A stretch of 64,000 nucleotides of DNA from a virus: the IMG/VR virus record IMGVR_UViG_3300042484_001840, positions 32,001 through 96,000 of that record. One strand, written 5' to 3'. The notes under the pieces were generated by a model, which saw only the letters and a list, made by a program, of their open reading frames with translations, was not told the DNA's origin and did no database searches. Position 1 is the first letter of the stretch, and each line of letters opens with the position of its first letter. Positions 6,623 to 60,772 of this stretch are shown in pieces. A program made the position numbers and the translations under genes.

Positions 6623-6652
6623 TTACGAATTCCAATTAAAAAGGAGTCATTC

Positions 6653-45240: not shown

Positions 45241-45318
45241 AGTAATCCCTTCGTAGTGGTGTTAGATAAGTATAGCAGGTCTGTGTAAGGTTTACAACCT
45301 TATCATCAGATTTCTTTC

Positions 45319-45615
45319 TCAGAGCCGACCACCGTAGTCTCGCTCGTTGTAGTAGCGATTTTCCCACTGTGCTTGCTTTTCAGCATCAGCGATTTCGGTT
45401 TCCAACTCTTCAAAGATTTCCTTCATTGCTTCAATGACGAGTGAGTGGATATCGGCAACAGTGCCGTGGTTTTTAATTCCGATACCGACATTCTGTGCTT
45501 CTCGCACTTCGTCATACCAATTGAAAAGTGCTTGCCACTCTCCAATGTTGCGAGCGTTGTATTCGTCAGCAATAAGTTGCTTGATGACTTCCGTAAAGTT
45601 AGTGGTGGTTTCCAT
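45319..45615 (-). CDS. Hypothetical protein
   Basis: Start 45615 after the cassette; a second promoter copy lies at about 45730-45762. Confidence 0.65.
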   Translation of the reverse strand: METTTNFTEVIKQLIADEYNARNIGEWQALFNWYDEVREAQNVGIGIKNHGTVADIHSLVIEAMKEIFEELETEIADAEKQAQWENRYYNERDYGGRL

Positions 45616-45777
45616 AGTTGTCCTTTTCCGTAGTAGTGGCTTACCAGATAAGTATAGCAGATATGTGTAACAATTACAACATCTAAATAGATATTTATTA
45701 GATTTTTTTTTGCGCCGTAACCTATAGGACAAGTATAGCAGATGGGTGTAACAATTACAACCTATTTATAGATAAAG

Positions 45778-45810
45778 TTATCCACAAAGTTATCCACAGA
45801 CTTATTCACA
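45778..45810 (+). promoter_or_regulatory. Three DnaA boxes at 12-bp spacing
   Basis: TTATCCACA (45778), TTATCCACA (45790), TTATTCACA (45802). Confidence 0.75.
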
Positions 45811-45940
45811 GGCAAAAAATAGGGGGTCATCCGCCACCGTACGAAAAAGAGACACACAGTCCCGTACCCCAAATCGGGGAGCGGGGCTATCAACCTTCAT
45901 GACAAATTCTGTCAATACTTGCAAGCATTAGCCCCGCAAC

Positions 45941-45954
45941 CGAACTAATGTTCG
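45941..45954. promoter_or_regulatory. LexA (Gram-positive type SOS) box
   Basis: CGAAC-TAAT-GTTCG 4 nt before the ATG at 45959. Confidence 0.65.
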
Positions 45955-45958
45955 TAGC

Positions 45959-46324
45959 ATGATCAACCAGAATAAGTGGACAACCCACATCACAGCACTC
46001 CGCTCATATGCGGAACGAACAGGAACTACGCGAGTCCCGCGGACTCATGTAGAAAATACAGAAACAGGTGAAGTGCGCCTCGGCGCTTGGGTGTCGTATG
46101 TTCGTCACCGCCAGCGCAAGGGACACTTGTCAGTTGTGCAGATTCAGGAACTTGCAACACTCCCGAATTGGCACTACGAACCACTGCCCGCAGGACGGAC
46201 AGGCGACTCTGCCCGTGACGCTCTCATTCAAGCACGGTCTGAAGATGGCGCACGAGTCCGTGAACTCTCACAAGAGTTTGGTCTTACTCGTCAGCGGATT
46301 CATCAAATTATTTCAGCCAAGTGA
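45959..46324 (+). CDS. Helicase-associated (HA) domain plus HTH protein
   Basis: W...LRSYAERTGTTRVP...LGAWVSYVR...L; C-terminal RELSQEFGLTRQRIHQI. Confidence 0.75.
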   Translation: MINQNKWTTHITALRSYAERTGTTRVPRTHVENTETGEVRLGAWVSYVRHRQRKGHLSVVQIQELATLPNWHYEPLPAGRTGDSARDALIQARSEDGARVRELSQEFGLTRQRIHQIISAK

Positions 46325-46608
46325 ACAAGATGAATGAGTCATACGCCGAGTGGCAGAGAGAGTTTAGGAAGTCACAACAGGTGAAGCCGAAGAGTGAGAA
46401 AGTGAAACCAAAAGGTTTCGTACTGTTTCTCGCAATGATCTTCTACTCGCTCATAGTGTCTGTGATTTTTTTCGTTGTCGTCACTCTTGCCCTAAGTATT
46501 GCAGGGTGGTCAGACTTCCTGTCTGCTCGTGAAGTGTTCGGTATATGTTTTGGCATCTCTTCACTCAGGGGACTTGACAGAGTTTTCTACGGTAGGAATC
46601 CTTTTTAG
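46321..46608 (+). CDS. Membrane protein
   Basis: Two hydrophobic segments. Confidence 0.55.
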   Translation: MNKMNESYAEWQREFRKSQQVKPKSEKVKPKGFVLFLAMIFYSLIVSVIFFVVVTLALSIAGWSDFLSAREVFGICFGISSLRGLDRVFYGRNPF

Positions 46609-46615
46609 ATATAGC

Positions 46616-46651
46616 AAAGAGCGGTAGGTGATAAACACCTACCGCTCTTTT
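46616..46651. terminator. Bidirectional terminator between convergent genes
   Basis: AAAGAGCGGTAGGTG-ATAAA-CACCTACCGCTCTTT. Confidence 0.85.
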
Positions 46652-46694
46652 GTGAAGCAGAGAGGAAAGGACAAGTAACCCTCTGCTAAGAAAG

Positions 46695-48044
46695 TCAGTC
46701 GTCTAAGTTTCGTTCTTTCCAAACTGACGAGTTCTTGATTTCACCAACAGCGTTAGCCTTAAGTCTCTTGCCTTGCTTGACTTGTTTCAATGCCTTGATA
46801 GCACCTTCAACATCATTAACTTGGTGAATACTGTGCTTAATAACAAGGTTCGCACACTCATCAGTCAGGTTGGCAAAGTTATTGTCGCCCTTGCCATCGG
46901 TAACATAACCATCGCAAACCCAAATGAATGGTTCGCCTTGCTTACGCTTGGCTTGTGCGAAACGAATAGCAGGACCATCAACGCCGTTACCGCCGTTGCC
47001 AGTAGGAACTTTCTCAACAACCTTGCCTCGTTCTGCCATTACCCAAACATTCGGGATTTCCTCAGAACCAACTCGGTGAGAGTAACCAATGATTACGCAA
47101 CCGGGCGCTTCCTCAATAATCTCCCACAAGTTTTCTGTTTCCAAACGCATTGAACCTGATTGGTCAATAAGAACAACACCGCCTCGTCCCTTAGCACGAC
47201 GATCAAAAATGCGTCGCTCAGGGTCTGTCAACATTCGTCCAATGCGACGAGGGTTGCGACCAATGTTAGTAGCAACTCTTTTTCGTCCAAGGTTTCCGTC
47301 AACAGCACGAGGCTTTGGAAGTTCTAATTCAATGAGTCTAGCGAACGCACCAGCGCCTGATTTTGCAATGTTCTTGACATCAGGAATTTCCTCGTTACCA
47401 AACTCATCAGGAGTTCCATCGTTACCTTCAGGCTTTAGCAAACTTTCAAGAAGTCGTGCGATAGGAACGGTCAACTTGTTGAAACCTTGCGGTAGACCAT
47501 TCTCATCCGCCACCGTGGAAGCAACAGCAGGTGTTTTTTTCCATATCTTGGCGAGTGCTTTTTGCAATTCTCGTGCTTGCTTCTCAAACTCAGGATTCGT
47601 TGTCTTGAGTCCTCGTAAGAAGTTTGCACCAGCCTTAGTGCCAGCGACAGCAGGAAGGAAACGAACAACTCCGTTCCAATCTCCGTTCTCGCCAATGATT
47701 TTTCCTGTCTGCGATTCAGAACCGTCTGCTAGTGCGTCAATAGGGAAGCCCTGTTTTGCAACCAACATATTCACACGAAACTCCTCTGCCATCATAAGCA
47801 GGTCAGTTTCAATTCCTAGTGCCAGCATTGCTTCAGGATTCGTTGGCGAAACTTTTGCGTGCATAAGTTCGTGAGCACGAACGACACGAGAAGTGTCGTC
47901 AGCGCCGTACGGTACTCGCATTTTTGCCGCTCGCATTTCTGTCCAAGCGTCACCTCGCACGGGGTTGCCCTCTTGGACTTCCCACGCACGAGGCTCAATG
48001 TCACGCCTGTTGATAAATTCGGGCATTGCTTTCATAACCTGCAT
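46695..48044 (-). CDS. Metallopeptidase-like (HExxH) plus vWA domain protein
   Basis: RAHELMH...EE; MIDAS VLIDQSGSM...GGNG...WVCDG. Confidence 0.8.
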   Translation of the reverse strand: MQVMKAMPEFINRRDIEPRAWEVQEGNPVRGDAWTEMRAAKMRVPYGADDTSRVVRAHELMHAKVSPTNPEAMLALGIETDLLMMAEEFRVNMLVAKQGFPIDALADGSESQTGKIIGENGDWNGVVRFLPAVAGTKAGANFLRGLKTTNPEFEKQARELQKALAKIWKKTPAVASTVADENGLPQGFNKLTVPIARLLESLLKPEGNDGTPDEFGNEEIPDVKNIAKSGAGAFARLIELELPKPRAVDGNLGRKRVATNIGRNPRRIGRMLTDPERRIFDRRAKGRGGVVLIDQSGSMRLETENLWEIIEEAPGCVIIGYSHRVGSEEIPNVWVMAERGKVVEKVPTGNGGNGVDGPAIRFAQAKRKQGEPFIWVCDGYVTDGKGDNNFANLTDECANLVIKHSIHQVNDVEGAIKALKQVKQGKRLKANAVGEIKNSSVWKERNLDD

Positions 48045-48045
48045 A

Positions 48046-48765
48046 TCAAGAAACTCCGTTCACTAAGATTGCGTCTAATACGGACTGATAGTGTTTTCCG
48101 AAAGTTAGGCGTGCCGCCTTCTCCACAGAAACTGTTTTGCGTAGAGTGTCAAACGCCATAAATGCTCGGATAGAGAAACGCCTATCCTTGTCAGCGTCAG
48201 CCGAAGCGGCCGCCGCTCCTCGCAAATCAGGCGAGAGCATTGTCAGAGCGTCAGGGTGAGGCGTGTTGATTCGCACAGCAACGGGAAAGCGGTCTTTGAG
48301 AGCCTGAGGCAACTCACGCATATCCTCAATGTTCGTGGTCATAAACACCGAGAAGCCTTTTTTCGGCTTCAAGATTCGTCCTGTCTCAGGATGTTCCCAA
48401 GAGGCAGATTCCTCACTGTCAAACATCGCAAGTAGTTGCGACATAACATCGCCTGACGCACGGTCAATTTCGTCAGCGACAACTCGTCCGCCGTTGATAC
48501 CGTCGCCTTGCCACGCCTTGATAACAGTGCCATCTTGCCATTTCCAAGTGCCATCGCCTGATGGCTTGAAGTGACCAGTAACATCGGCACTCGTCATATC
48601 CTCGTTACAGATAAGACGGTGAGCACCTGCCGAAACATTGCCAAATGTAAGACCAGCGAATGTTTTGCCCGTTCCTGGCGGTCCGAACAGAATTAGTTTG
48701 TTGATTCCTGAGTCAAGAATGTCGTTGACATCTTGCCAGCATTCGGGGAGATTAGTAGTAGTCAT
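48046..48765 (-). CDS. MoxR/CbbQ-type AAA+ ATPase
   Basis: GPPGTGKT, VVADEIDRA, MTTN, LPQALKDRF, FSIR; paired with the vWA gene. Confidence 0.88.
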   Translation of the reverse strand: MTTTNLPECWQDVNDILDSGINKLILFGPPGTGKTFAGLTFGNVSAGAHRLICNEDMTSADVTGHFKPSGDGTWKWQDGTVIKAWQGDGINGGRVVADEIDRASGDVMSQLLAMFDSEESASWEHPETGRILKPKKGFSVFMTTNIEDMRELPQALKDRFPVAVRINTPHPDALTMLSPDLRGAAAASADADKDRRFSIRAFMAFDTLRKTVSVEKAARLTFGKHYQSVLDAILVNGVS

Positions 48766-48874
48766 AGTTTGTCCTTTGCTAGTAGCGGGTTTTCCCGTGT
48801 TTGATAAGTATACACCCTGTGTGTAGAAATTGCAACTTTATTTCAGAAATTATTTGACATTTTTTTTAGAATGT

Positions 48875-48903
48875 AGTGGCAGGGAGATTTCCCCCCTGCC
48901 ACT
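48875..48903 (-). terminator. Hairpin terminator
   Basis: AGTGGCAGGG...CCCTGCCACT immediately after the 48910 stop. Confidence 0.6.
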
Positions 48904-48909
48904 CACTCA

Positions 48910-49308
48910 TCAGGCGACCTGAGAGATATTGACTACATTCTCAGTGTCGTTGGCGATTTCCGTGACTCGTACTTGGTCGTACTTAGTGACGGTAGTAATC
49001 GCCTCAGCAATATCGCTGGGGATAACGCCCAACTCAACGGCGGACTTGAATTTCTTACCGTCCACTTCAAGTTTGGTAACTTGCTTGAGAACGATAGGCG
49101 AGACAAGTTCGGTCAATGCCTTCAGGTTGTACTTGGGTCGCTCACCATTGACGATGAGAACCTTTTGTCCGTCCACGACATTGAAGTTGAGTCCCTTTTC
49201 AGCGTAGGCAAGTTTCAAGTCTGCCTCTGCTTGGGCTTTAGCCTTTTCAGCATTTTCCAATGCTTGCTTGGCATTCAAGTAGTTGAGAGTGATTTGTGTG
49301 AGATTCAT
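48910..49308 (-). CDS. Hypothetical protein with N-terminal coiled coil
   Basis: Own cassette; YLNAKQALENAEKAKAQAEADLK. Confidence 0.7.
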   Translation of the reverse strand: MNLTQITLNYLNAKQALENAEKAKAQAEADLKLAYAEKGLNFNVVDGQKVLIVNGERPKYNLKALTELVSPIVLKQVTKLEVDGKKFKSAVELGVIPSDIAEAITTVTKYDQVRVTEIANDTENVVNISQVA

Positions 49309-49387
49309 AATTTGTCCCTTTCAGTAGTGGTGTGTATTCATTATACAGGTTGTGCGTAACAATTGCAACCTTATTTCTAAATTATTT

Positions 49388-49615
49388 TCAGAATTCGTAT
49401 TCGTCGCCTGTTGATACCCAACAGATTTCGCCATCTTGAAAACCTTGGCGGTAAAGTTTGCCAAGAACAACAAGTAAGCCGTTAGAGATACTCCCCAACT
49501 TGCTTGTGATGTATTCCTCGGCGGTAGCGTCGGTACTAAACAACTCGTAATTAGTGGCAATGTAATCGCCGTGCATTTCTCCATAAAGAACCGCTTGAAA
49601 GAAATTCGTACTCAT
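49388..49615 (-). CDS. Hypothetical protein
   Basis: Own cassette. Confidence 0.65.
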   Translation of the reverse strand: MSTNFFQAVLYGEMHGDYIATNYELFSTDATAEEYITSKLGSISNGLLVVLGKLYRQGFQDGEICWVSTGDEYEF

Positions 49616-49698
49616 ATTGTGTCCCTTCGTTAGTAATTGCTTGCGGAAATAAGTATATCAGGTGGGTGTATGAATTACAACATTATTACTTAGATTTA

Positions 49699-49764
49699 TC
49701 AGATATTTTTCAGAACCATAGATAATGTTCCGAGTAGGTATAGACCAACGAATAAGAGTCCCAT
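49699..49764 (-). CDS. 21-aa hydrophobic microprotein (not in ORF track)
   Basis: MGLLFVGLYLLGTLSMVLKNI directly after a full promoter/leader cassette (49765-49822). Confidence 0.55.
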   Translation of the reverse strand: MGLLFVGLYLLGTLSMVLKNI

Positions 49765-49947
49765 AGTAATCCTTCTGTAGTAGGTGAAATATAAGTATAC
49801 AGGTTGGGTGTAAGAATTACAACCTTATTTATGTTACAGAATGATTACAATAATTGTAACAGAAATGTTATATTAAAATGTTGTATTTGTTACACAGAAG
49901 TGCTATACTTATATTCGTAAGTTACTACTACCGAAAAGGACAAAACT

Positions 49948-50145
49948 ATGGAAGCGAAATGTTGCGCCGATAAGCCGATGCTAGAAGTTTATGGTTACGA
50001 GGGTTGTGCGGATTGTTACGATAAATGGTGCGAGGGCGAACTTATCGCCTATGAAGATTTACGCCGTGCAGAGTTCGCAAACTCTTGGGTGATTGGTGGC
50101 GGTTACGCCTCAGACGCTGATCTCGCTTACGAACAGTTTGCGTGA
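49948..50145 (+). CDS. Hypothetical Cys-rich protein
   Basis: Own cassette, divergent from 49764. Confidence 0.65.
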   Translation: MEAKCCADKPMLEVYGYEGCADCYDKWCEGELIAYEDLRRAEFANSWVIGGGYASDADLAYEQFA

Positions 50146-50298
50146 TGGCGAGTCCCACTGCTGAAAGGCGGTGGGACAACCACTTAGTCCCGCTTGGGCA
50201 GTCTCATCCGCCACCGTCATTCATTGGGAGCGCGCGTGCGGGGCTATCTCGGTATACCCCACCCCTAAAGCCCCGTATCCCCCAAAAATTTCTGGGGG

Positions 50299-50330
50299 TT
50301 ATCCACAGGCTGGGGATAACCTGTGGATAA
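50299..50330. promoter_or_regulatory. Three DnaA boxes (one with a mismatch)
   Basis: TTATCCACA 50299, TGGGGATAA 50311, TGTGGATAA 50322. Confidence 0.7.
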
Positions 50331-50340
50331 CTTTGACCCG

Positions 50341-50517
50341 TCAGCAAGCCCCCTCACAATACTCGCAAGTGGTCTCGTCAACTTCGTGACAGCCATTCCA
50401 GCCTTCGTCAACTTTGTTGTTGTCGGCGCAATACTGTATGCGACACCAGTCAGAACAGAAAACAATTCTGTCAACGATGTCGCCACTCTTATCTTCAATC
50501 AAAAGTAGGTGAGCCAT
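50341..50517 (-). CDS. 58-aa Cys-rich protein (not in ORF track)
   Basis: MAHLLLIEDKSGDIVDRIVFCSDWC...GWNGCHE...CEYCEGAC after a cassette. Confidence 0.7.
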   Translation of the reverse strand: MAHLLLIEDKSGDIVDRIVFCSDWCRIQYCADNNKVDEGWNGCHEVDETTCEYCEGAC

Positions 50518-50647
50518 TATTTTGTCCCTTCGGTAGTAGTGCCTTACCTTATCTATTATAGCAGGCGGGTGTAGAAATTACAACTCGATTTGTTAAATTT
50601 ATTTAGAACTTTGGGGGCGGACTTTCGCCCGCCCCCAACGCTCATGA

Positions 50648-50935
50648 TCAGGCTTCGCACTCGCAGTCGTAGTGGAGTTCTTCGCACCAACCGCAGTGGT
50701 CACGATCCCACTCTTCGTCTTCGTCTTCTTCGTCCTGAATGTCAAAAGACACCCAAGCCATGACGGTACGAAGCAAGTGGTCGTAATCGCCAGCAGTGGC
50801 GTTCTGAGTGAACTCAGCGATTACTTCCCGTGATACGCCGTGATTACGGAGCGCACCACAAACTCTTGCGATAATGCTGAACGCATTACCGTCCTGCCCG
50901 ACGAGCAGAACCGAAACTTCAGGATACTTAACCAT
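50648..50935 (-). CDS. Conserved phage protein
   Basis: LVGQDGNAFSIIARV...ATAGDYDHLL; own cassette; hairpin 50611-50638 follows. Confidence 0.75.
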   Translation of the reverse strand: MVKYPEVSVLLVGQDGNAFSIIARVCGALRNHGVSREVIAEFTQNATAGDYDHLLRTVMAWVSFDIQDEEDEDEEWDRDHCGWCEELHYDCECEA

Positions 50936-51108
50936 AATTTGTCCCTTCGTTAGTAGTTTTTCCTTACCTGATAAGTATAGCAGATAGGTGTAACAACTAC
51001 ACCATTGTAGAGCGTGTCATTTGTCACATAAGATTTATTCGTAAAAGTGTGTAAATGCTACACCCACCTGCTATAATATATATATCACCTACTACGAAAG
51101 GAAAAAAT

Positions 51109-51441
51109 ATGATTTGGAAAGCAAAAGCCTCCGACATTATTGACCACCTTGTTTACTCAGGGGCAGACACCTATGAGTGGTATCACGAACTCACCGAAAC
51201 CAAAGACGGACAAATTGTCTGTACGATGGAAACGGGCGAGTACGACGATGAGTCTGAACCGTTGACAGCGAGTGTTGCGTTCTCCCCCACTCACGCCTTG
51301 ACAGTCGCCAATGCGATTATCAAGGGACAGGGAGCGGGTTGGCGCACCGTTCAGTCAGCAGTCGCTAATGACGACTTTGACTCCGATGCCGCGGACATCG
51401 TTCTCCAGCACATCGTGCTGAGCGACTTGGTGTTCGGCTGA
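51109..51441 (+). CDS. Acidic hypothetical protein
   Basis: Start 51109 after a cassette; ends DAADIVLQHIVLSDLVFG. Confidence 0.7.
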   Translation: MIWKAKASDIIDHLVYSGADTYEWYHELTETKDGQIVCTMETGEYDDESEPLTASVAFSPTHALTVANAIIKGQGAGWRTVQSAVANDDFDSDAADIVLQHIVLSDLVFG

Positions 51442-51479
51442 GACTTCAGGGCGGGGGAGGGAAACCTCCCCCAAGACCC

Positions 51480-51523
51480 TGTGGATAACCTTTTCCACAG
51501 CCTGTGGATAACCCTGTGGATAA
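51480..51523. promoter_or_regulatory. Four DnaA boxes
   Basis: TGTGGATAA 51480, TTTTCCACA 51491, TGTGGATAA 51503, TGTGGATAA 51515. Confidence 0.78.
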
Positions 51524-51638
51524 CTTTCCCGATAGCCCCGTATACAAAGTGCGGGTGCGGGACTGTCACGATAAATAGTCGTGGAAATTCTTGAATTGAA
51601 AAAACGGGAAGCGGGGCTAACAAACTAAATAGCAGGGG

Positions 51639-51806
51639 TCAAGCCCCTGCCACACTAGTCACTCGGTCCACGAGAACCCGCAAATCCAACAGAATGTCTG
51701 TCATTTTGCCCGCCTCGGCAATACTGACTCCCCGCAAATCACGGAGAGTCTCGTCAATGAGGTTATATATTTCCTCGGTTGGCGTGAGTAAATTTAACTG
51801 ACTCAT
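51639..51806 (-). CDS. 55-aa hypothetical protein (not in ORF track)
   Basis: MSQLNLLTPTEEIYNLIDETLRDLRG...; overlaps the stop of the upstream gene by 4 nt with a GGGG RBS. Confidence 0.55.
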   Translation of the reverse strand: MSQLNLLTPTEEIYNLIDETLRDLRGVSIAEAGKMTDILLDLRVLVDRVTSVAGA

Positions 51807-52195
51807 ACTGTCGCCCCTTCCTTGATCTTGGCTAGTTGTTCGGCACGAATTGCGTTTACTTCCTCGGCTGAGAATACCTTACCGAACACGCTCAACATGG
51901 TACGAATGTCGTCGTCCACGCCCGTAGTGTTACCTTCCTCGTCGTACCCTGCGATAACAGCAGGTCCGACAAGTCGGTAACCTTCGCCAGCCAAAGTAGA
52001 AGCGAACTCGTTTAAGGCGAAGTCAGAACGGAATAAACCTTCCTCGTTCAACCACAAGTCAAGACCGTTCACCAATTGAACGCTCTCAATGAGTCCCTGA
52101 ACGAGACTCTGGAGAAACTCCAAAGACTTTTGACCTTCGGGCTTCTGAACAATGTACGGCGAACCGTCTAAATCGTTGATGTAAATGACTTGCAT
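51803..52195 (-). CDS. DUF3846-like protein
   Basis: LEFLQSLVQGLIESV...LWLNEEG...N..AS...LVGPAVIAG.D.EG. Confidence 0.75.
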   Translation of the reverse strand: MQVIYINDLDGSPYIVQKPEGQKSLEFLQSLVQGLIESVQLVNGLDLWLNEEGLFRSDFALNEFASTLAGEGYRLVGPAVIAGYDEEGNTTGVDDDIRTMLSVFGKVFSAEEVNAIRAEQLAKIKEGATV

Positions 52196-52287
52196 AATTA
52201 GTCCCTTTCGTAGTAGTGTTTATATATTATAGCCTTGTGGGGCAGGAAAGTCAAATCCTGCCCCACAATTATTTCATTTCTTTAGGC

Positions 52288-52476
52288 TCAGACCGTGACC
52301 TTGCGTGCCTTGCGTCGCGCGCGGACATTGCGGATCTCTGCGCGAAGTGATGCGGTGAGTCCAGCCTTGATCCAAATGGCGGTTATCAAAGAAGCGTTGA
52401 TCATAACCAGCAAGCCTCTGATGACTTCCAAAGTGTAATCCGAGAGAGTGAAGTTGATAGTGTATTGAGCAATCAT
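52288..52476 (-). CDS. Small membrane protein
   Basis: Own cassette; TM plus basic tail. Confidence 0.6.
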   Translation of the reverse strand: MIAQYTINFTLSDYTLEVIRGLLVMINASLITAIWIKAGLTASLRAEIRNVRARRKARKVTV

Positions 52477-52630
52477 TTTGTGCCTTTCGTAGTAGGTATG
52501 AGATAAGTATAGCGACTTTGTGTAACTTTTACAACCTTCTAGTAAGTGTCATTTGTCACACTACTCAATGTTGTAATTTCTACACAGACTCGCTATAATA
52601 TACTTGTACACAACTACTAAAGGAGAAAAT

Positions 52631-52864
52631 ATGCTCAGCACCAAAATTGGAAATAGTGACTGGTACTTCGTTCTCAACAACGGAGCGACTCGCAAGTTCT
52701 CAGTTCAGTTTCTCGGCAGACGACGAGGAGACGACAAGCGAGACATCGTGACATTCCGTGAAGGTGCGCCACACTACGAGGCGTACACGACCGAGACGGG
52801 CAAAGCAATTCCGAAGTTTGTCGCAAAAGCAATTTGGGAAGCAATGGAAAAGTCCCCCGCCTGA
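52631..52864 (+). CDS. Hypothetical protein
   Basis: Start 52631 after a cassette. Confidence 0.65.
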   Translation: MLSTKIGNSDWYFVLNNGATRKFSVQFLGRRRGDDKRDIVTFREGAPHYEAYTTETGKAIPKFVAKAIWEAMEKSPA

Positions 52865-53045
52865 CAAGCGGGGGAAACCCTTTAGCCCCGTTGGATATAT
52901 GCGTGCGTGGAAAGTTTTGACGCTTCTCTTCCGCCACCGTCAATAGTAGGGAACACAGGGGCGGGGCTGTCACCCCTAAATAGGGGTGTTCAGGGGGCGT
53001 ACCTCACGATACGCCCCCTTCGGGTGGCCAAACTCGCCACTCGCC

Positions 53046-53492
53046 TCACTCCTCGTTGAACAAGTCGTTCAGCATTTGCGTTTCTAAGTTCCGCATACTA
53101 GAACTTTCCACGATGTCACTAACCATCTTGCCTAGGTCAAAGCCCGCTTCTGCGAGTTCTGCTAGAAGTTCCTCAGACGGTTCTTCCTCAACTTCGGCGT
53201 AGTGTTGTTGCTTCTCGTCGTCGCTCATCGCTTGGATACTGCGGTCATAGCCAACCCAATTCCCAATGTTTGAGTACTCGTCTAGTTGCTCGTGAGTAAG
53301 ATTGAACTCACGCATAACACGCTCGGTCATGACCGATGAAGGTATGCCTTCACCTAACTCCACGCTTCGCTTAGCGTTCTCTATGAGAAGGCTCGTACGG
53401 TAGTTACAAAGCCGTACGAAGTGGTCAGGGTAGTAGAACGATACTCCATTGGGGAATTCGCTATCAGGGAAAAAATCGGACTTGGTAATCAT
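53046..53492 (-). CDS. Acidic hypothetical protein
   Basis: GAAAGGA RBS before 53492. Confidence 0.65.
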   Translation of the reverse strand: MITKSDFFPDSEFPNGVSFYYPDHFVRLCNYRTSLLIENAKRSVELGEGIPSSVMTERVMREFNLTHEQLDEYSNIGNWVGYDRSIQAMSDDEKQQHYAEVEEEPSEELLAELAEAGFDLGKMVSDIVESSSMRNLETQMLNDLFNEE

Positions 53493-53508
53493 TAGTAATC
53501 CTTTCGGG

Positions 53509-53736
53509 TCAGAGGTCTGGTAAGTAATCAAATTCTACGGTTGTCTCCCAAGAGATATCTTTCATTTCCCAACCGTAGTGGTAGCGAAGGTTCTTGGTTG
53601 CCATGTCAATGGCGACTTCTGTTAGTTGGTCATTATCCAAGTTGGTGAATGACGGCTCCTCTAAATCTATCTCAACAAAGTGAGTCAGAGAAAAGAAATC
53701 TCCAACAAAGGTGACATTACAACTTGCGTGCTTCAT
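53509..53736 (-). CDS. Hypothetical protein
   Basis: ACTAC..CGAAAGGA leader. Confidence 0.6.
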   Translation of the reverse strand: MKHASCNVTFVGDFFSLTHFVEIDLEEPSFTNLDNDQLTEVAIDMATKNLRYHYGWEMKDISWETTVEFDYLPDL

Positions 53737-53779
53737 AGTAATCCTTTCGGTTGTAGTTGGTATGGGGTGAAGTTGGGGG

Positions 53780-54295
53780 TCAGACCCCCAACTCCTCGGC
53801 TAGTTGCTTCTGAGTCTTACCTAGGTGCTTCTTAGCGCACACAGGGCCGACTCCGACACGATGACCGTAGCCATCCTTGTCGTCTAGTTCGGCACTACAG
53901 AACAAACAAACGCCCGTACGCACGCCGTACTCCATAGCGACGAGTGCGGTGACCTTTTCGGTTGGCGAGAGCAGGGAGATCGCTCCACGCTCGTAAATCC
54001 AACCGCTTTCGCCACGACGCATTGCGTAGAGATTGCCACCTTCGGATTGCTTCACCTTGTAGATCAAGTGACCGACGAGGTAGAAACCGACTTCGGTAAC
54101 CTTCTCGGCAGGCTTGACTTCCGTAGCAGGCTTAGCCATAACCTTGGCGAACATTGAACGGATAGCCTTTTCTTGCGCTTCGCTCAATGCGCCCTTGTTC
54201 TCAAAAGTCTTAGCGATTGAGATTGCGAACGCACTCCACTGTTGGGCTTTCGCCCATTCAATGACGGAAGTAATCGGGGTCAATGTGGTAGTCAT
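53780..54295 (-). CDS. DUF6011-like Zn-finger protein
   Basis: GVCLFCSAELDD...GVGPVCAKK; own cassette. Confidence 0.75.
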   Translation of the reverse strand: MTTTLTPITSVIEWAKAQQWSAFAISIAKTFENKGALSEAQEKAIRSMFAKVMAKPATEVKPAEKVTEVGFYLVGHLIYKVKQSEGGNLYAMRRGESGWIYERGAISLLSPTEKVTALVAMEYGVRTGVCLFCSAELDDKDGYGHRVGVGPVCAKKHLGKTQKQLAEELGV

Positions 54296-54370
54296 AATTT
54301 CTCCTTAGTAGTAGTGGTGATAAATACAAGTATACAGCAGGGGTGTATGAATTACAACCCCTGCCTCGGC

Positions 54371-54493
54371 TCACCAAGTTGGTGGCCGACCGATGAAGTT
54401 GCCATCGGAGTCGTAGCAACCATTGTCGGGGTCAAGGTAGCCCTGAGCGTCGTAGCGGTCAGGATCGTTGTAGTCGTCATGATCGTTATTCAT
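54371..54493 (-). CDS. 40-aa Asp-rich microprotein (not in ORF track)
   Basis: MNNDHDDYNDPDRYDAQGYLDPDNGCYDSDGNFIGRPPTW after a full cassette. Confidence 0.65.
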   Translation of the reverse strand: MNNDHDDYNDPDRYDAQGYLDPDNGCYDSDGNFIGRPPTW

Positions 54494-54575
54494 AATTTCC
54501 CCTTTGTAGTAGTTGGTATTTAATAAGTATACAGGCTTCGTGTAAGAATTACAACCTTATTCGCAAGATTATTGG

Positions 54576-54591
54576 TGTGACATTGGTCACA
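54576..54591. promoter_or_regulatory. CRP/GlxR-type site
   Basis: Perfect TGTGA-CATTGG-TCACA; related sites at 51013, 52545, 55269, 56857, 59460, 60612. Confidence 0.55.
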
Positions 54592-54816
54592 GGCCAGTCG
54601 TCTGGGGGCTTGGGGGTCGTCGGCCGGGTTTGGGGAGTTTGGCCACCCTGCTTCGGAGGCATTTAGTCCCGCTTGGTTATGGCGAGTTTCCCGTGTTTGT
54701 CGCAAGCCCCGCAGGTGAAAACGGCAAAGCGGAGATGCGGGGCTAGTGGTGGTTTTCGGATTAGCAATTATATGTAAGGGGTGGGGCAGGGTTTCCCCCG
54801 CCCCACCATGCCCCTG

Positions 54817-55185
54817 TCACCACACAGGAGTAAATCGTCGCTCGTCGGCGTTGTAAGCGTGTTCGTAGTGAGTGCCTTTATTCTCAAGGTTACGAACTTC
54901 AATTTCTTGAACGAGACGCTTGGCAATTGCGCTGAAGTTCAAGCCATCAGTGCCTGCCACCATTCGCTTGCGTCGGTGGGCGATAACCGAAGCGGTAACC
55001 AATTCCGAACGCTTGAGTGCGTTCTCGTCGGCGTACACCTTCGTTACTGCGTCGGCTACTTGTTGGTAATCCCAACAGGCGTTGTACATTCCGCCGAGCA
55101 GTGTAATTAAATCAAATCGTGACGGAAGTGAATAGTAATCGCCCTGTAATTTGGTGGGCTTATTCTTATGCCATTTGGTAAGCAT
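54817..55185 (-). CDS. Hypothetical protein
   Basis: Own cassette. Confidence 0.65.
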   Translation of the reverse strand: MLTKWHKNKPTKLQGDYYSLPSRFDLITLLGGMYNACWDYQQVADAVTKVYADENALKRSELVTASVIAHRRKRMVAGTDGLNFSAIAKRLVQEIEVRNLENKGTHYEHAYNADERRFTPVW

Positions 55186-55358
55186 ATTTTTTCCTTTCGT
55201 AGTAGTGGTTATGAATATAAGTATACACCTTCTGTGTAGGAATTACAACTTCTAGCGTCAAATAATTGTGTGACAAATGACACTAGGCAGAACTGTGTAA
55301 ATGCTACACCCACCTGCTATACTTGTATATGTAAGGAAAACCTACCGAAAGGAATACT

Positions 55359-55541
55359 ATGAATAACGCAGAATTGTTCGTGTGGAATGAAATTGAAGAG
55401 GGCTTCATTCGTGAGTATGGAATTGAAGACGGTATACGAGTGTGCGATTACGCACAGCGTGTATATTACAGGAGTGGCAAGATGACCCTAGCCGTCAAGG
55501 CGGCAACGGAATGGGCTAGCAGAATGAGAATGGGAGTCTGA
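55359..55541 (+). CDS. Small protein, paralog of 57375-57554
   Basis: FVWNEIEEGFIREYGIEDGIR...AV..A.EW. Confidence 0.7.
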   Translation: MNNAELFVWNEIEEGFIREYGIEDGIRVCDYAQRVYYRSGKMTLAVKAATEWASRMRMGV

Positions 55542-55542
55542 T

Positions 55543-55743
55543 ATGGCAAGTGTTTCAGTAAGCGGTGTCGCCCTACTAGGTAAGACAACGGCAGTAGGTT
55601 CTCATATAGATTTACGAGAACGCCTAGCCTACCTAGAGGGCGTTCTCAGCGGGCTAGAGAACGCTGGAGTAGTTCTGCCTACGGGAGACTACGAGACGCT
55701 CTACAGGACGCTCAAAGATACCAAAGAATTTCTTTACGAATAA
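55543..55743 (+). CDS. Hypothetical protein
   Basis: GGAG RBS, coupled. Confidence 0.55.
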   Translation: MASVSVSGVALLGKTTAVGSHIDLRERLAYLEGVLSGLENAGVVLPTGDYETLYRTLKDTKEFLYE

Positions 55744-55808
55744 CTTGACATTCCTACACCTAGGGTGTATAATATACCTATAACGAAAACTAACCGAAAG
55801 GACTACTA

Positions 55809-55979
55809 ATGGCTACCGTTCCCAACTACGAAATTGAACGACTAAATGAGTTTGTCGCAGAAATTGAAATTGCGATTAAGGAACACGGTTACGCATATGC
55901 GTACGGTGCGACAATGTTCAACTTGAAGTCTTTGCTCAACCAAATTACCCGTGAGCCAGCACCTTGGGAGAACCTATGA
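55809..55979 (+). CDS. 56-aa hypothetical protein (not in ORF track)
   Basis: MATVPNYEIERLNEF... after a consensus TTGACA-17-TATAAT cassette. Confidence 0.7.
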   Translation: MATVPNYEIERLNEFVAEIEIAIKEHGYAYAYGATMFNLKSLLNQITREPAPWENL

Positions 55980-56098
55980 AATACAAATGGAATGAACTAG
56001 AAAAGTTCGCCTTCGCCACGCAGAAGTTGCGGGCGAACCGAATTCCTGACAAGAAAAAAGAGTCAAACCGAAAAGCGTGTAGGAAGCGAGACTACTGA
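55976..56098 (+). CDS. 40-aa basic protein (not in ORF track)
   Basis: MKYKWNELEKFAFATQKLRANRIPDKKKESNRKACRKRDY; ATGA overlap and GGAG RBS. Confidence 0.55.
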   Translation: MKYKWNELEKFAFATQKLRANRIPDKKKESNRKACRKRDY

Positions 56099-56364
56099 GT
56101 CTCGCCAACTACTCCGCTAGCCCCGCCCTCATCTTGAGCGTGCGGGGCTTTTGCTTTCCATAAACCAATTGGACATTCTGCATTGGACAGGGTTGTCTTC
56201 AATGGCATGAAGCACCCGCAAATTCCGCAAGTGCTTAGACGCTTACTGAAGTGGTCACAGCCCCGACAGATGTCTAAGCGTTCTTTTCGTTCCAAGCGGG
56301 TCAAGCGGGGGATTGACGGGCGTAGTAAATCCGTGAATTGCGCAGGAGATTGTTCTTCGTTCAT
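56092..56364 (-). CDS. DUF6171-like Cys-rich protein
   Basis: RLDICRGC...TCGICGCFMPLKT...CPIGLW. Confidence 0.7.
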   Translation of the reverse strand: MNEEQSPAQFTDLLRPSIPRLTRLERKERLDICRGCDHFSKRLSTCGICGCFMPLKTTLSNAECPIGLWKAKAPHAQDEGGASGVVGETQ

Positions 56365-56434
56365 ACGCTAATTGTATCCACGGAAGTATACCTAAGGGGT
56401 ATGACATAGTTGCCCATGCCATACCCCTTGATTA

Positions 56435-56788
56435 TCACAATTGGATAAACCTACCCAATTTGAATATCTGCTGGATAAGTGCGCCCCATGAGCAGTAGTA
56501 GTGCATGACTACCAATTTCTTGCTCGCTGGGTAATACTTGCCCGTACCCCAAGTATCTGTCTTAGTGGGGTTCTCGCCTTGATTAACAGCATACGGTTGA
56601 TTGAGTGCCACTCCGCAACAGGAACAGGGTAGTGAACCAAATTCGCCATCAAGGGCTAAGTGGATCATCTGCATGTTGCGCTTACGCTTCATGCCTTGGC
56701 GGAGTGCTTCAAGCGTGTCTGCTTCGGCGTATGCCTTAGCACCGTGTTCCCACGGTTTACGGTAAGCGGGTTTAGTAATGGTAGTCAT
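56435..56788 (-). CDS. Hypothetical Zn-binding protein
   Basis: Start 56788 after a cassette; CSCCG...HYYC. Confidence 0.65.
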   Translation of the reverse strand: MTTITKPAYRKPWEHGAKAYAEADTLEALRQGMKRKRNMQMIHLALDGEFGSLPCSCCGVALNQPYAVNQGENPTKTDTWGTGKYYPASKKLVVMHYYCSWGALIQQIFKLGRFIQL

Positions 56789-57187
56789 TAGTAGTCCTCT
56801 CAGTAGTTGTAAATATAAGTATACAGGAGAAGTGTAACAATTACAACATTGCATAGTATGACAATTGTCACTATCGGTATTGCGCCTAATTACTTATGAG
56901 TATATTATACACGATAGGTGAATGAATGTCAAGTATTTACACAAAATAATTTATTATATTTAGTTTTATAAATAATATCTATAATATATAAATGTCTTCC
57001 GCCACCGTCAATAGTAGAAGCGCTTAGCCCCGTTCATTTTTTGGCAAATTTATATCATTTCTACCAATTTCATATCAGTTCGGGTGCGGGGCTGTCAGCC
57101 TTCTGAAATACTTTGTAATACAAGGTGATACAGGGAATTACTGCGTGCGGGGCTAATAGTTTTCTTTCCCGCCAATCAAGTCGCCCC

Positions 57188-57292
57188 TCATTCCATCAAA
57201 TCTTTAAAATCATCCCAAAACAGAGCGACAATAATTCCCGCAACCATTCCAAGCGCCCCAAGTCCAATCAAAAAGTCGTTTAGCAATTCCAT
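57188..57292 (-). CDS. 34-aa single-TM microprotein
   Basis: MELLNDFLIGLGALGMVAGIIVALFWDDFKDLME after a cassette. Confidence 0.65.
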   Translation of the reverse strand: MELLNDFLIGLGALGMVAGIIVALFWDDFKDLME

Positions 57293-57374
57293 AATTTCTC
57301 CTTTGTAGTAGTTGGTTACATAGACAATTATACAGGAGGGGTGTGGCAGAGTTTCCCCTGCCACCCCCAAGCGA

Positions 57375-57554
57375 TCAGTAGACCGCTCGCTCTCGGCGTT
57401 CCCACTCAATCGCATTGGCGACTGCCTTGGCAATCCCCTTGGCGGTTTGGCTATGAGTACGACTGGCTCGTTCACCAATTCGCAACCCTCGCTCTAACCC
57501 GTACTGGCGGATTAGGTTTTCGTGGATCTCATCCCATAAGAATTTGGTATTCAT
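57375..57554 (-). CDS. Small protein, paralog of 55359-55541
   Basis: MNTKFLWDEIHENLIRQYGLERGLR...AVANAIEW. Confidence 0.7.
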   Translation of the reverse strand: MNTKFLWDEIHENLIRQYGLERGLRIGERASRTHSQTAKGIAKAVANAIEWERRERAVY

Positions 57555-57642
57555 ATTTTCTCCCTTAGTAGTGGTGACTTCCTTACATATATAAGTATAC
57601 ACAAGGGGTGTGGCAGAGTTCCCTCCGCCACGCCCCCAGCGA

Positions 57643-58008
57643 TCAGTAATCCTCATCCTCATCGTCCTCGTCCTCTTGGCTGAGAAACTCCTCATCGTCC
57701 ATCCATTCGCCCTGCCCGATGAGACTCACGAAACCTGCGTTGGGGTTCTCGTGGTTGGTTGTGACTGCGTTGATGAACTTCAGACCACACGACTCGTCCC
57801 ACCAAACTTTGAGCGTGGTGAGCATTTCCTCAGAAGTGCCCTCAAAAGTGCGGTCATCGCAGTGAACGCCGTTATAGTTCTCACGGAACCAGCCCGCCTG
57901 CTCCTCGTCCATTGCGAGGTAGATTTTGTGGCAACCGTCCCAAGCGATAAGGAGAGCGCCCTCAAGAGCGTCCTCAACTGGGTCAAATAAATTGTCTAAG
58001 GTTTTCAT
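57643..58008 (-). CDS. Acidic conserved phage protein
   Basis: IAWDGCHKIYLAMD...WWDESCGLKFI; own cassette. Confidence 0.7.
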   Translation of the reverse strand: MKTLDNLFDPVEDALEGALLIAWDGCHKIYLAMDEEQAGWFRENYNGVHCDDRTFEGTSEEMLTTLKVWWDESCGLKFINAVTTNHENPNAGFVSLIGQGEWMDDEEFLSQEDEDDEDEDY

Positions 58009-58098
58009 AGTTTGTCCCTTTCAGTAGTTGTTGCTTACTTAGTAATTATACACAAGGGGTGTGGCAGAGTTTCCTCCGCCACCCCCTGACGCTTGAGA

Positions 58099-58314
58099 TC
58101 AGATCTCAGCCTCCCACATACGGCAGATCTCCTTGGTGATATGGAGACCCTGAACAAGTGCCAAGCCAATGGCTCGCTTTAGTTCGTTGGGCGTTGCCAA
58201 GGGGAGGTAGTTGTCAATGTCCTCCCAAGCCTTGAGACCAGCAAGGATTTCCTCGTAGGTCTTGCTGGCATAAGCCTTGTCATTACTAGTTGGGAACTTG
58301 GTTTCGGTAGTCAT
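58099..58314 (-). CDS. Hypothetical protein
   Basis: Own cassette. Confidence 0.65.
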   Translation of the reverse strand: MTTETKFPTSNDKAYASKTYEEILAGLKAWEDIDNYLPLATPNELKRAIGLALVQGLHITKEICRMWEAEI

Positions 58315-58549
58315 AATTTGTCCTCTCGGTAGTGGTTTTCCTTACCTAGTAAGTATACACCTTGGGTGTAGCACTTACACCATTATTCGTGTTACAGAAT
58401 GGTTACAGATTTATGACGGAAATGTAATGGAGAGCCAAAATGCCGATATGGGCAATGTGTCACCATTACACGCTAGAACGCCCCCTAAGCGCCTGACCCC
58501 CCTCTCCGCCCCTAGCACCCAATCCTGAGCCTGAAACGGCTGAGAGACG

Positions 58550-59147
58550 ATTTCCACAGATTTATACACAGCCTCTGAGCAGGGGAAATGTGGCAAAACC
58601 CCAGCGTGAGGGCACTTTTTGCATAACCCCTGCTAGTGGGCTTACACACGGTGGTTATCCACAGAAGTGACCACTTACCACCAGATTTCACCAGTAGTTA
58701 TCCACAGGGGTGTGTATAAAGTTGGGGATAAGGTTATCCACAGGATATCCACAGGGTGTGGATAAAGTAGTTGTACTGTGCAAGTAAGTTATCCACAGGG
58801 GGTGTGGATAAAGGTGTGGATAAAGTTTTCCACAGGGTGTGGATAAACCTGTGGAAAAGATAGTTGTAGTCTACAAGTAAGTTTTCCACAGGATGGGGAT
58901 AAAGTTGTGGATAAAGTTATCAACAGGGCTGTGGATAAAGTTGTGGATAACTTTTTGCTCTGTAAAAAATTCTCTTCCGCCACCGTCAAAGTTTTAGAAA
59001 CGAGGGGGCGGGGCTAGTCCCCTACTAACAAGAATTGAAAAATCTGAACTTATAAAAAAAAGCATTAGCCCCGTTTGTTTTTTCAAGAAGCATTAGCCCC
59101 GTTTGTTTTTTGAGTTTTCCACAGGTTTTTCCACAGGCTGTGGATAA
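58550..59147. repeat. Large DnaA-box array (oriC-like or DnaA-titration locus)
   Basis: 16 perfect TT(A/T)TNCACA boxes plus 5 one-mismatch boxes in 58550-58950, and 3 more at 59115-59147; 11-14 bp spacing within blocks. Confidence 0.85.
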
Positions 59148-59179
59148 GGGGGTAGGGTTTGACCCCCACCCCCACTCAA

Positions 59180-59377
59180 TCACCAAGGGCACTCGTTGTG
59201 TCCTTTTCTCATTATCCATCGCGATTTCATTTCGCTGACGAATCGGTAGGCAACTTTGTGCGGACTCCATAAGTAAGCGAGTCGCCTGATGCCTGTCATG
59301 TCCTCAGCCTCGTCCAATTCGCAATTGGCGGGCATGTAAAGCGAACCGCTCCACTCTAGTCCTTTGAGCCATTTCAT
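59180..59377 (-). CDS. Hypothetical protein
   Basis: Start 59377 after a cassette. Confidence 0.65.
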   Translation of the reverse strand: MKWLKGLEWSGSLYMPANCELDEAEDMTGIRRLAYLWSPHKVAYRFVSEMKSRWIMRKGHNECPW

Positions 59378-59555
59378 ATTTTCTCCTTCTAGTAGTTCCT
59401 TACATATACAAGTATAGCAGACTTGTGTAACCATTACAACATTTATCAACAAATATCTTTGTGACAAAAGACACGCCGTACAATGGTGTAAACTCTACAC
59501 CCTCATGCTATACTTATGGAGTACGGAAAACCTACTACTAAACAAGGGAGACAGT

Positions 59556-59834
59556 ATGAAGTTCATGACCGAAACGCTAGTGACAGACACGCTCTGCTAC
59601 GAAGTAATTGCCGAGACAGCCAAGACGCTGACAATCAGGTCAATGGCACGAGGCGAGCAGGTGTACACCGATGGCGCACCATTGCCAGTAATCGGACTCC
59701 GAGCGATTTCTGATCCGAACGGAGACACCAAAGTGGTGAGACTCCGTAAAGACGGAACTTACCGCAAGGCTCAGGGATACAACCCCCTGCGGTTCACCGA
59801 GACTCCGATCTTCTACACGGACTACAAGTACTGA
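59556..59834 (+). CDS. Hypothetical protein
   Basis: Start 59556 after a cassette; YEVIAETAKTLTIR. Confidence 0.7.
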   Translation: MKFMTETLVTDTLCYEVIAETAKTLTIRSMARGEQVYTDGAPLPVIGLRAISDPNGDTKVVRLRKDGTYRKAQGYNPLRFTETPIFYTDYKY

Positions 59835-60008
59835 GAGATGGGCGGGGGGCGAAAGCCCCCCCCCCCCCAGTTATCCACAGGGCTGTGGACAACTTTGCGC
59901 GGAAAATCCGTGCGGGGCTATGGGCTTCCCGACGCGCCCGCTAGCCCCGTTGCTTCAAAATCTGGAGACTCACGGTATGGGCAGAACCCCGCAGGGCTTA
60001 GCGCCCCC

Positions 60009-60296
60009 TCAATCGGGGACGCTTGCCCATGCTTCGGCTTCGGTACTGAACTCGCCAAACTCGGAGACGGTACGAACTTCGGTCAGGCTTACGGCTTGAC
60101 GGACAGTAAAGCGACGCTCGCCGTCCCAAGCGAAGCCGTTAGGGTCTTGCTCAGAAGTGACAAAGTAGCCATCGCCGTAGATATCTCCGTGAACCCTTGA
60201 CGCAAACCAGCGCATAGTGCTATCGGAGAAAAAGTGGTAGCCAGCGTCTTTACTAGCCTCCACGAACTCACTTAGTGTCATGGTTGAAATACTCAT
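60009..60296 (-). CDS. Conserved phage protein
   Basis: AGYHFFSDSTMRWFASRV...YFVTSE...RRFTVR...FGEFST; own cassette. Confidence 0.75.
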   Translation of the reverse strand: MSISTMTLSEFVEASKDAGYHFFSDSTMRWFASRVHGDIYGDGYFVTSEQDPNGFAWDGERRFTVRQAVSLTEVRTVSEFGEFSTEAEAWASVPD

Positions 60297-60373
60297 AGTT
60301 ATCTCCTTAGTAGTTGATGGATAAATTATACCGAGGGGGTGTGGCTCAGTTCCCCAAGCCACACCGAAGCCCC

Positions 60374-60541
60374 TCAGAACCGAGGTAGTTGGCTTAGGAC
60401 ATAATCCTCGGCACGGGTGATGTACTTAGCCGTAACAGCGCCTCGTGCTTTTCTATAAGCGAGGTCATAGATACGGTCAGCAACTTCAAAGCCATGCTTA
60501 CGGATAAGAGCCTCGTAAAGTTCATTTTCTGAGAATGTCAT
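60374..60541 (-). CDS. Small protein, distant paralog of 55359/57554 family
   Basis: NELYEALIRKHGFEVADRI...A.R. Confidence 0.6.
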   Translation of the reverse strand: MTFSENELYEALIRKHGFEVADRIYDLAYRKARGAVTAKYITRAEDYVLSQLPRF

Positions 60542-60636
60542 TATTTTCTCCTTAGTAGTGGTGACAGATATAAGTATACACCCGCCGAGTGTAGAAACTA
60601 CAACCATACGGTGTGTCTCTTGTCACACTACCTAAC

Positions 60637-60772
60637 CGAACAGGTGTTCGCACGGAGACACCGAACAAGTGTTCCCCGAACGGGTGTTCGTACCGAACAA
60701 GTGTTCGCTTGATAAAAATACGCACCGACGCATAAAAATACACCGAACAGGTGTTCTACGAACAGGTGTTCG
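60637..60772. promoter_or_regulatory. Array of six LexA (SOS) boxes
   Basis: CGAAC-N4-GTTC(G/C/T) at 60637, 60662, 60677, 60694, 60744, 60759; TTGACA follows at 60774. Confidence 0.8.

Follow-up and report, generated by a model that had tools for sequence, protein, structure and literature searches.

An ordered, non-coding array of DnaA-box triplets in an uncultured phage, a possible sink for host DnaA

DnaA is the near-universal initiator of bacterial DNA replication. We analysed a gene-free gap in the genome of an uncultured phage that holds three blocks of six predicted DnaA boxes, together with outlying boxes and a pair of direct repeats. Unless given as genome positions, coordinates are those of the window, by which we mean the whole 64,000-nucleotide stretch analysed (positions 32001-96000 of IMG/VR record IMGVR_UViG_3300042484_001840). 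In genome coordinates, the array lies at ~90.7 kb. The features are listed below, with box orientations given as + and -.

58099 to 58314, minus strand: gene of 71 aa, downstream of the array, with no PHROG or Pfam family
58315 to 59179, no strand assigned: gene-free gap of 865 bp enclosing the complete element and flanked by two small leftward genes (ORF map)
About 58352-58380, near the 71-aa gene: putative early-family promoter, read by eye
58550 to 58570, plus strand: two outlying boxes, one two bases off the consensus and one within TTWTNCACA (consensus scan)
58655 to 58663, plus strand: single perfect DnaA box (consensus scan)
58698 to 58765, no strand assigned: Block 1, six boxes (+ - - + + -) with gaps of 4, 3, 2, 2 and 3 bp
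58766 to 58788, no strand assigned: Spacer 1, an imperfect 13-bp palindrome at the centre of an inverted repeat with 20-nt arms
58789 to 58858, no strand assigned: Block 2, six boxes (+ - - + - -) with gaps of 5, 3, 2, 3 and 3 bp; the first triplet has the geometry of a DARS core
58859 to 58881, no strand assigned: Spacer 2, a perfect 13-bp palindrome at the centre of an inverted repeat with 22-nt arms
58882 to 58950, no strand assigned: Block 3, six boxes (+ - - + - -) with gaps of 3, 3, 2, 4 and 3 bp
58970 to 59022, plus strand: one instance of a repeated phage module, in which CGGGGCT comes 20 nt after a 16-nt motif with CCGCCACCGT
59057 to 59111, plus strand: two 27-nt direct repeats, each with the complement of CGGGGCT; the surrounding 82 bp (59030-59111) are 70% A+T
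59115 to 59147, no strand assigned: three-box cluster (+ + -, the triplet read from the other strand) with gaps of 3 and 3 bp
59180 to 59377, minus strand: gene of 65 aa with no PHROG or Pfam family, reading toward the array; promoter-like site at 59411-59439
45778 to 45810, plus strand: separate cluster of three tandem boxes
50299 to 50330, no strand assigned: isolated + - - triplet between convergent genes, its middle box one base off
51480 to 51523, no strand assigned: four-box cluster (- + - -) between convergent genes

The record is 145,042 bp long and rated 98% complete. Since its first 11,341 bases are repeated at its end with 42 mismatches, the unique genome is ~133.7 kb. This assembly (G000) closes into a circle, as does that of a sister phage, G001 (193-bp overlap). 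Structural genes encode a portal protein, a prohead protease and an HK97-type capsid protein that is ~50% identical to capsid proteins of Brevibacterium and Gordonia phages. Other genes encode an SSB, ThyX, an SNF2 helicase, a DUF932 protein, a DNA methylase, a Toprim/AAA_25 primase-helicase, a class II ribonucleotide reductase, two DUF732 proteins and, in three copies, WhiB. The WhiB genes, DUF732 domains and actinophage-like capsid protein point to an actinobacterial host, and since the phage itself has a G+C content of 44%, the host is plausibly an actinobacterium with an unusually low G+C content for its phylum. When the ribonucleotide reductase was used to search for the host, the sole match was a 26-kb contig in a bin labelled Bacteroidia (75% identical), which is possibly a mis-binned relative of the phage. 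At genome positions 121.8-130.2 kb (L010 5828-14231), a tryptophan halogenase (Pfam E = 4e-99), a C-methyltransferase and a glycine-rich-domain protein are encoded together, an unusual set resembling that of a natural-product pathway.

The three blocks occupy 253 bp (58698-58950). Each of their 18 predicted boxes has at most one mismatch to TTATCCACA: 10 are perfect, four more fall within TTWTNCACA and four are one base outside the consensus. Boxes are packed 11-14 bp start to start, in the orientations + - - + + - / + - - + - - / + - - + - -, and six extra boxes lie in the same 865-bp gap. Tandem Repeats Finder reported a period of 92 bp (2.8 copies, 80% matches) and, within it, shorter periods of 35-36 and 12 bp. 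An earlier note on this DNA had described three blocks of six boxes, and we recovered every one of its 18 positions with no more than one mismatch, the block starts 91 and 93 bp apart and both 23-bp spacers as quoted. Of the outlying boxes it listed, we confirmed those at 58562 and 58655 and, in its range 59115-59147, boxes at 59115, 59127 and 59139; its box at 58550 is two bases off the consensus. The A/T-rich direct repeat it reported at 59060-59111 is present as two 27-nt copies (59057-59111) that are 96% alike, but the region is only 70% A+T and lies only ~1.4 sd below mean stability.

Orientations and gaps in the array obey a fixed rule, with 3-5 bp between facing boxes, 3 bp between boxes in tandem and 2 bp between those placed back to back. 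The basic unit is therefore a 36-bp triplet in which one box faces two tandem boxes. A facing pair followed by a tandem box was seen in five of the six array triplets; at 58789 the gaps are exactly 5 bp and 3 bp, while elsewhere they are 3-4 bp and 3 bp. Outside the array, the same triplet occurs at 50299, 51491 (within the 51480 cluster), 59115 (on the other strand) and genome position 101746. Each 23-bp spacer is the centre of an inverted repeat whose 20-22-nt arms take in the flanking boxes, and the 13-bp core palindrome is preserved by paired changes among the spacer copies of G000 and G001. The array region matched no Rfam family or tRNA.

Boxes are far more frequent than expected. The window contains 35 matches to TTWTNCACA, compared with 8.1 +/- 2.7 in shuffles, and the perfect 9-mer occurs 31 times in the whole record (~1.5 expected). 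The unique genome has 76 boxes with one mismatch or fewer, of which 60 fall at 77-105 kb, a 28-kb early region, where they form about nine intergenic clusters. The remaining 106 kb contain 16 such boxes, below the ~30 predicted from composition. Some early-region clusters lie between convergent genes, with no promoter and no unwinding element there.

Other motifs are also concentrated in this part of the genome. All 43 genome copies of CGGGGCT or its complement (~9 expected genome-wide) fall in 32 kb shared with the DnaA boxes (window 40089 to genome 103989), often as inverted pairs 30-80 bp apart and adjoining DnaA clusters. The 16-nt motif containing CCGCCACCGT belongs to a repeated non-coding module and has ~10 copies, all on the plus strand (window positions 39972, 45831, 47507, 50208, 52931, 56999, 58977 and others); in three copies CGGGGCT follows 19-20 nt on, and some copies lie inside ORFs. 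Palindromes of the form TGTA-N5-TACA also accumulate, with 21 of 23 in the early region (genome 70-107 kb; window 45284-60590) where 3 are expected. Most read GTGTAA-N3-TTACAAC and overlap a -35-like hexamer, and they look like a family of phage early promoters or operators. We considered whether the spacer palindrome of the array is such an operator and rejected this, as its half-sites are alike but separated by 3 rather than 5 bases and this form is confined to the array. Six LexA-type boxes (GAAC-N4-GTTC) are crowded into 134 bp at 60638-60771, immediately upstream of a TTGACA hexamer and of the gene for the SNF2 helicase; the window holds 7 LexA-type sites compared with 1.3 expected.

The sister phage offered an independent view of the array. 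G001, a 129-kb assembly from a different sample, is 92-96% identical to G000 and carries the array between the same genes. There, a 22-bp insertion adds two boxes and a 21-bp insertion adds one spacer, while the flanking genes are unchanged between the two phages. From these indels we conclude that the array is non-coding and evolves by gain and loss of units, growing by duplication. Two ORFs, of 51 and 66 aa, cross the array without a ribosome-binding site (judged by eye), and the 66-aa ORF is broken by the 22-bp indel in G001; we therefore rejected a protein-coding array. A more distant relative, G002, has small triplets at syntenic places and lacks the array at this site. By blastn, the array region had no relatives among cultured phages.

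We also rejected the idea, which the earlier note had raised against its own reading, that the segment is a chimeric fragment of a host oriC, because G001 carries the array at the same place, in the same phage gene context, and no dnaA lies nearby. Taken with the shuffles and the ORF map, the G001 assembly bears out the description of the element as phage-borne, non-coding, far beyond chance and built of host-type boxes. That note had also seen no dnaA gene in the window, and this extends further: no DnaA domain was detected at E <= 1 across the whole 145-kb record, nor was DnaA domain IV.

Since the boxes lie between genes, one could imagine that bound DnaA blocks transcriptional read-through or tunes early promoters according to the replication state of the host. 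All clusters are intergenic, several sit at the 3′ ends of convergent genes, and the gene that reads into the array has no intrinsic terminator after it. DnaA is known to act as a transcription factor, and in B. subtilis its clusters control the genes next to them (PMC2533591). However, 18 boxes far exceed what a barrier or operator requires, ~180 bp separate the first box from the nearest promoter-like site, and array size differs between close relatives whose flanking genes are unchanged. We regard a role as a DnaA-dependent barrier or regulator as improbable. Between the downstream promoter and the first DnaA box lies a direct repeat, GTTACAG-N4-GTTACAG (58391-58408), with an 11-bp period; it resembles the tandem site of a response regulator, and a similar repeat occurs near 49826.

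A stronger alternative is that the array is a DnaA-dependent phage origin or helicase-loading site, where DnaA would open 59030-59111 and the phage primase-helicase and host polymerase would start replication. Consistent with this, the phage has a primase-helicase and SSB, and neither an initiator nor a DNA polymerase was found (family A, family B and Pol III alpha were searched in record G000). The lack of a polymerase is uninformative with respect to box richness, as searches of G001 and G002 for family A and Pol III alpha polymerases also found neither, whatever their box count. No other gene-free gap nearby is as long as the one that contains the array, which borders the divergent promoters of the SNF2 helicase/DUF932/SSB operon. 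The array is missing from the syntenic site of G002. Its boxes flank the moderately A+T-rich repeat (70% A+T, two 27-nt copies), but this flank is only ~1.4 sd less stable than average (60-bp stability of -72.9, compared with a genome mean of -80.9 and an sd of 5.7) and not among the 25 least stable sites, which makes it a weak unwinding-element candidate. In the basal unwinding system of bacterial origins, DnaA-trios lie within about 16 bp of a box (PMC8287927). In the phage, no box has a run of four or more trios within 60 bp; the runs of three that occur up to 20 bp from a box were only A-runs, at two small clusters elsewhere.

The arrangement of the boxes also differs from that of an origin. 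In the array they face each other, unlike the one-directional run that feeds an unwinding element. Like an oriC with a basal unwinding system (PMC8287927), the phage has many DnaA boxes in a non-coding region (18 + 6 in 865 bp), but it lacks DnaA-trios, a strong A+T-rich unwinding element, dnaA or dnaN neighbours and a skew inflection. Along the genome, cumulative GC skew is lowest at 32 kb and highest at 106 kb and stays level through 90.7 kb, a weak test as skew follows the direction of transcription; the inflection that the earlier note had proposed to look for at ~58.8 kb was thus not seen. With no trios, no strongly unstable flank, no inflection and no array in G002, its suggestion of an oriC mimic loses ground, and we consider an origin at this site rather unlikely.

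A second cluster looks more origin-like; it lies outside the window at genome 103794-103968 (L009 7794-7968), where ~12 boxes, nearly all in one orientation, abut a ~100-bp tract of 82% A+T that is the third least stable site of the genome. Because this tract is partly deleted in G001, the cluster is not clearly indispensable, and neither it nor the 90.7-kb array looks like an origin that the phage could not do without. The least stable 60 bp of the genome (56933-56993, 92% A+T) belong to a gene-free gap of 552 bp, 1.7 kb to the left of the array, with no DnaA box and then copies of the heptamer; they are a candidate unwinding site or strong promoter region.

Extra copies of DnaA-box clusters, beyond those of datA, disturb initiation of chromosome replication. 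We compared the array with known clusters outside origins. Multicopy datA disturbs initiation (PMC2533591), and in the non-origin DnaA clusters of B. subtilis, local density and affinity are reported to decide whether DnaA binds stably (PMC2533591). The same work cites a high-affinity DnaA-binding region with a part in the regulation of initiation in Streptomyces coelicolor. By sequence, the array has the properties of such titration clusters, namely dense boxes of the high-affinity type that are intergenic and outside an origin (PMC2533591). Like E. coli datA and the B. subtilis clusters, it is intergenic, has high-affinity boxes (as judged from their sequence) and has no strong unwinding element. 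The known clusters, however, are chromosomal and consist of 4-8 more widely spaced boxes (five in datA), whereas the phage has 18 boxes at the closest packing, a 36/92-bp higher-order repeat and ~40 further boxes, all in a lytic-type genome.

The triplet itself resembles the cores of E. coli DARS1 and DARS2, which, when read from genomic DNA, consist of a box, 5 bp, an opposed box, 3 bp and a tandem box. This agrees with the published description of the DARS core, where boxes I and II face each other and II and III are in tandem (PMC6868365). The triplet at 58789-58823 has the DARS orientations and the 5-bp and 3-bp gaps, the remaining array triplets differ by a first gap of 3-4 bp, and isolated triplets of the same type lie at three other genome sites. 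The triplets might therefore strip nucleotide from DnaA so that it can reload with ATP, altering the activity of DnaA rather than its amount. We think this quite improbable. To our knowledge, no recycling of ADP-DnaA to ATP-DnaA has been described for actinobacteria, and the geometry may simply be the tightest stable packing. DARS function, characterised in E. coli (PMC6868365), also requires flanking DNA or IHF and Fis sites, and the 5-bp gap is present in only one of the six triplets. DARS1 and DARS2 are, moreover, single three-box units, whereas the phage has six in tandem with a first gap of 3-4 bp in five, no IHF or Fis regions and a putative host from a phylum without a known DARS cycle.

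Equivalent arrays, for which the earlier note had suggested searching related phages, were present in sister G001 and also in unrelated IMG/VR contigs. Scanning IMG/VR for perfect boxes with 3-bp gaps unless stated otherwise, we detected the opposed triplet in 36 stretches and the all-tandem form in at least 120. The alternating form was present in one stretch, G001 itself, and the back-to-back triplet (perfect boxes) in none; two tandem boxes followed after 2 bp by a back-to-back box were present in 6. Four contigs (L293, L299, L300 and L301) have arrays of 10-12 boxes that repeat the same triplet with nearly identical gaps (L293 5923-6040; L299 7131-7295). L121 has 26 boxes (6642-7202) and, like L082 (185-374), consists mostly of same-orientation runs. 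Translated searches revealed no similarity to this phage in L082, L293, L299, L300 or L301. Thus the triplet grammar, as predicted from box sequences, is common to arrays of unrelated uncultured phages. The 36-bp triplet as basic unit, its fixed gaps, the DARS-core geometry and its recurrence in unrelated phages are new here.

This recurrence bears on whether the sites could belong to a phage-encoded protein, as iterons or a partition centromere that merely resemble DnaA boxes. Plasmid centromeres and iterons typically show arrays of helically phased repeats, both direct and inverted, and most genes near the array have no known family (PHROG, Pfam). Nevertheless, 29 of the 60 early-region boxes match the universal 9-mer exactly, and variation occurs mainly at positions 3 and 5, the two positions that the DnaA consensus leaves open and DnaA tolerates. 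The boxes and their grammar recur in phages that share no genes with this one, and the phage encodes no DnaA domain IV-like protein. Sites for a phage protein are, in our judgement, scarcely to be expected.

The surroundings of the arrays in other contigs vary. In L082 the array adjoins terminase and portal genes, as it does in L041 and L042, judged by the same gene order; in L293 it lies 300 bp upstream of a VapE-type primase-helicase gene, a position that favours an origin. Proximity to packaging genes in these three unrelated contigs would fit a genome-end, injection-stop or membrane-anchoring signal, as proposed for the DnaA-box pairs of T5 and the third reading offered by the earlier note. 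The T5 injection-stop region has few boxes, eight in all, arranged as four pairs 3 bp apart inside the terminal repeat (bioRxiv 10.1101/866236), and T5-like phages carry these eight paired boxes in the left terminal repeat, with the same variants, TTATCAACA and TTATCCCCA. As here, the T5 boxes are phage-borne, non-coding, 3 bp apart, of the same variants and within inverted repeats. Unlike T5, this phage has 18 + 6 boxes in one gap and about 60 genome-wide, with no known link to a genome end: its packaging genes are ~58 kb from the array, the G000 and G001 assemblies are both circular and so have no known end, and the boxes extend over 28 kb rather than one site. We consider such a signal very unlikely.

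Of the three readings in the earlier note, a DnaA sponge would best fit the anatomy. We infer that host DnaA binds the array and that selection has favoured capture over initiation; it is more likely that the array captures or redirects DnaA than that it is an ordinary replication start. We tentatively favour a model, to which we give somewhat less than even chances, in which the array is an amplifiable trap for host DnaA. It would be a non-coding, tandemly amplified docking site for the host initiator, with boxes packed as closely as DnaA can sit and six triplets that would favour cooperative, stable binding. Together with the ~40 further early-region boxes, the array would form a sink. As phage genomes multiply, DnaA would be captured and withheld from the host origin, shutting down new rounds of host replication. 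The gain for the phage would be access to the host replisome, which it must use if it has no DNA polymerase of its own; that blocking host initiation is of benefit is an argument and not an observation.

Several features argue for a dosage-dependent sink over a regulated origin: the boxes are of the high-affinity type and at the tightest packing, clusters occur in any free intergenic DNA, and the array grows by tandem duplication and shows no clear opening module. The sink is further supported because the clusters are position-independent, including those between convergent genes, because neither DnaA nor a polymerase of family A, family B or the Pol III alpha type was found in the phage, and because the same grammar is fixed and common to unrelated phages. 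The six-box LexA array 1.5 kb away suggests that arrays of sites for host regulators are a theme in this genome. Counting against the sink, the phage needs an origin somewhere, its genome revealed no initiator gene, the array is next to the divergent promoters that open the SNF2 helicase/SSB operon, a typical place for a phage origin, and the L293 array is close to a primase-helicase gene. The boxes are also of the E. coli/Bacillus type, while the characterised actinobacterial (high-GC) box, TTGTCCACA, differs by one base at position 3. Since TTGTCCACA boxes are the sole characterised actinobacterial ones, affinity for the DnaA of the real host is an assumption of this model.

More broadly, and with a little more reserve than for the trap itself, we suggest that these arrays may be a widespread, undescribed class of phage element. 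Their DARS-core-like triplets would be decoys that capture host DnaA, perhaps also resetting its nucleotide, and thereby exert DNA-level control over replication of the host chromosome. The phage-DnaA interactions known to us depend on proteins or on small numbers of boxes, as in origins like that of P1 and in the T5 injection-stop region. If the model is correct, a phage with ~60 strong sites, including 18 in a single array that can be amplified, would control or exploit host initiation through DNA alone, and the effect of the phage boxes on the host would rise of its own accord with the number of phage copies. The triplet grammar is a concrete, searchable signature that E. coli DARS cores and unrelated uncultured phages have in common, and with it one could test directly whether the function of opposed DnaA protomers is conserved beyond E. 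coli. The array is relevant, too, to the question of how a phage of 134 kb that lacks a polymerase may recruit or free the host replisome.
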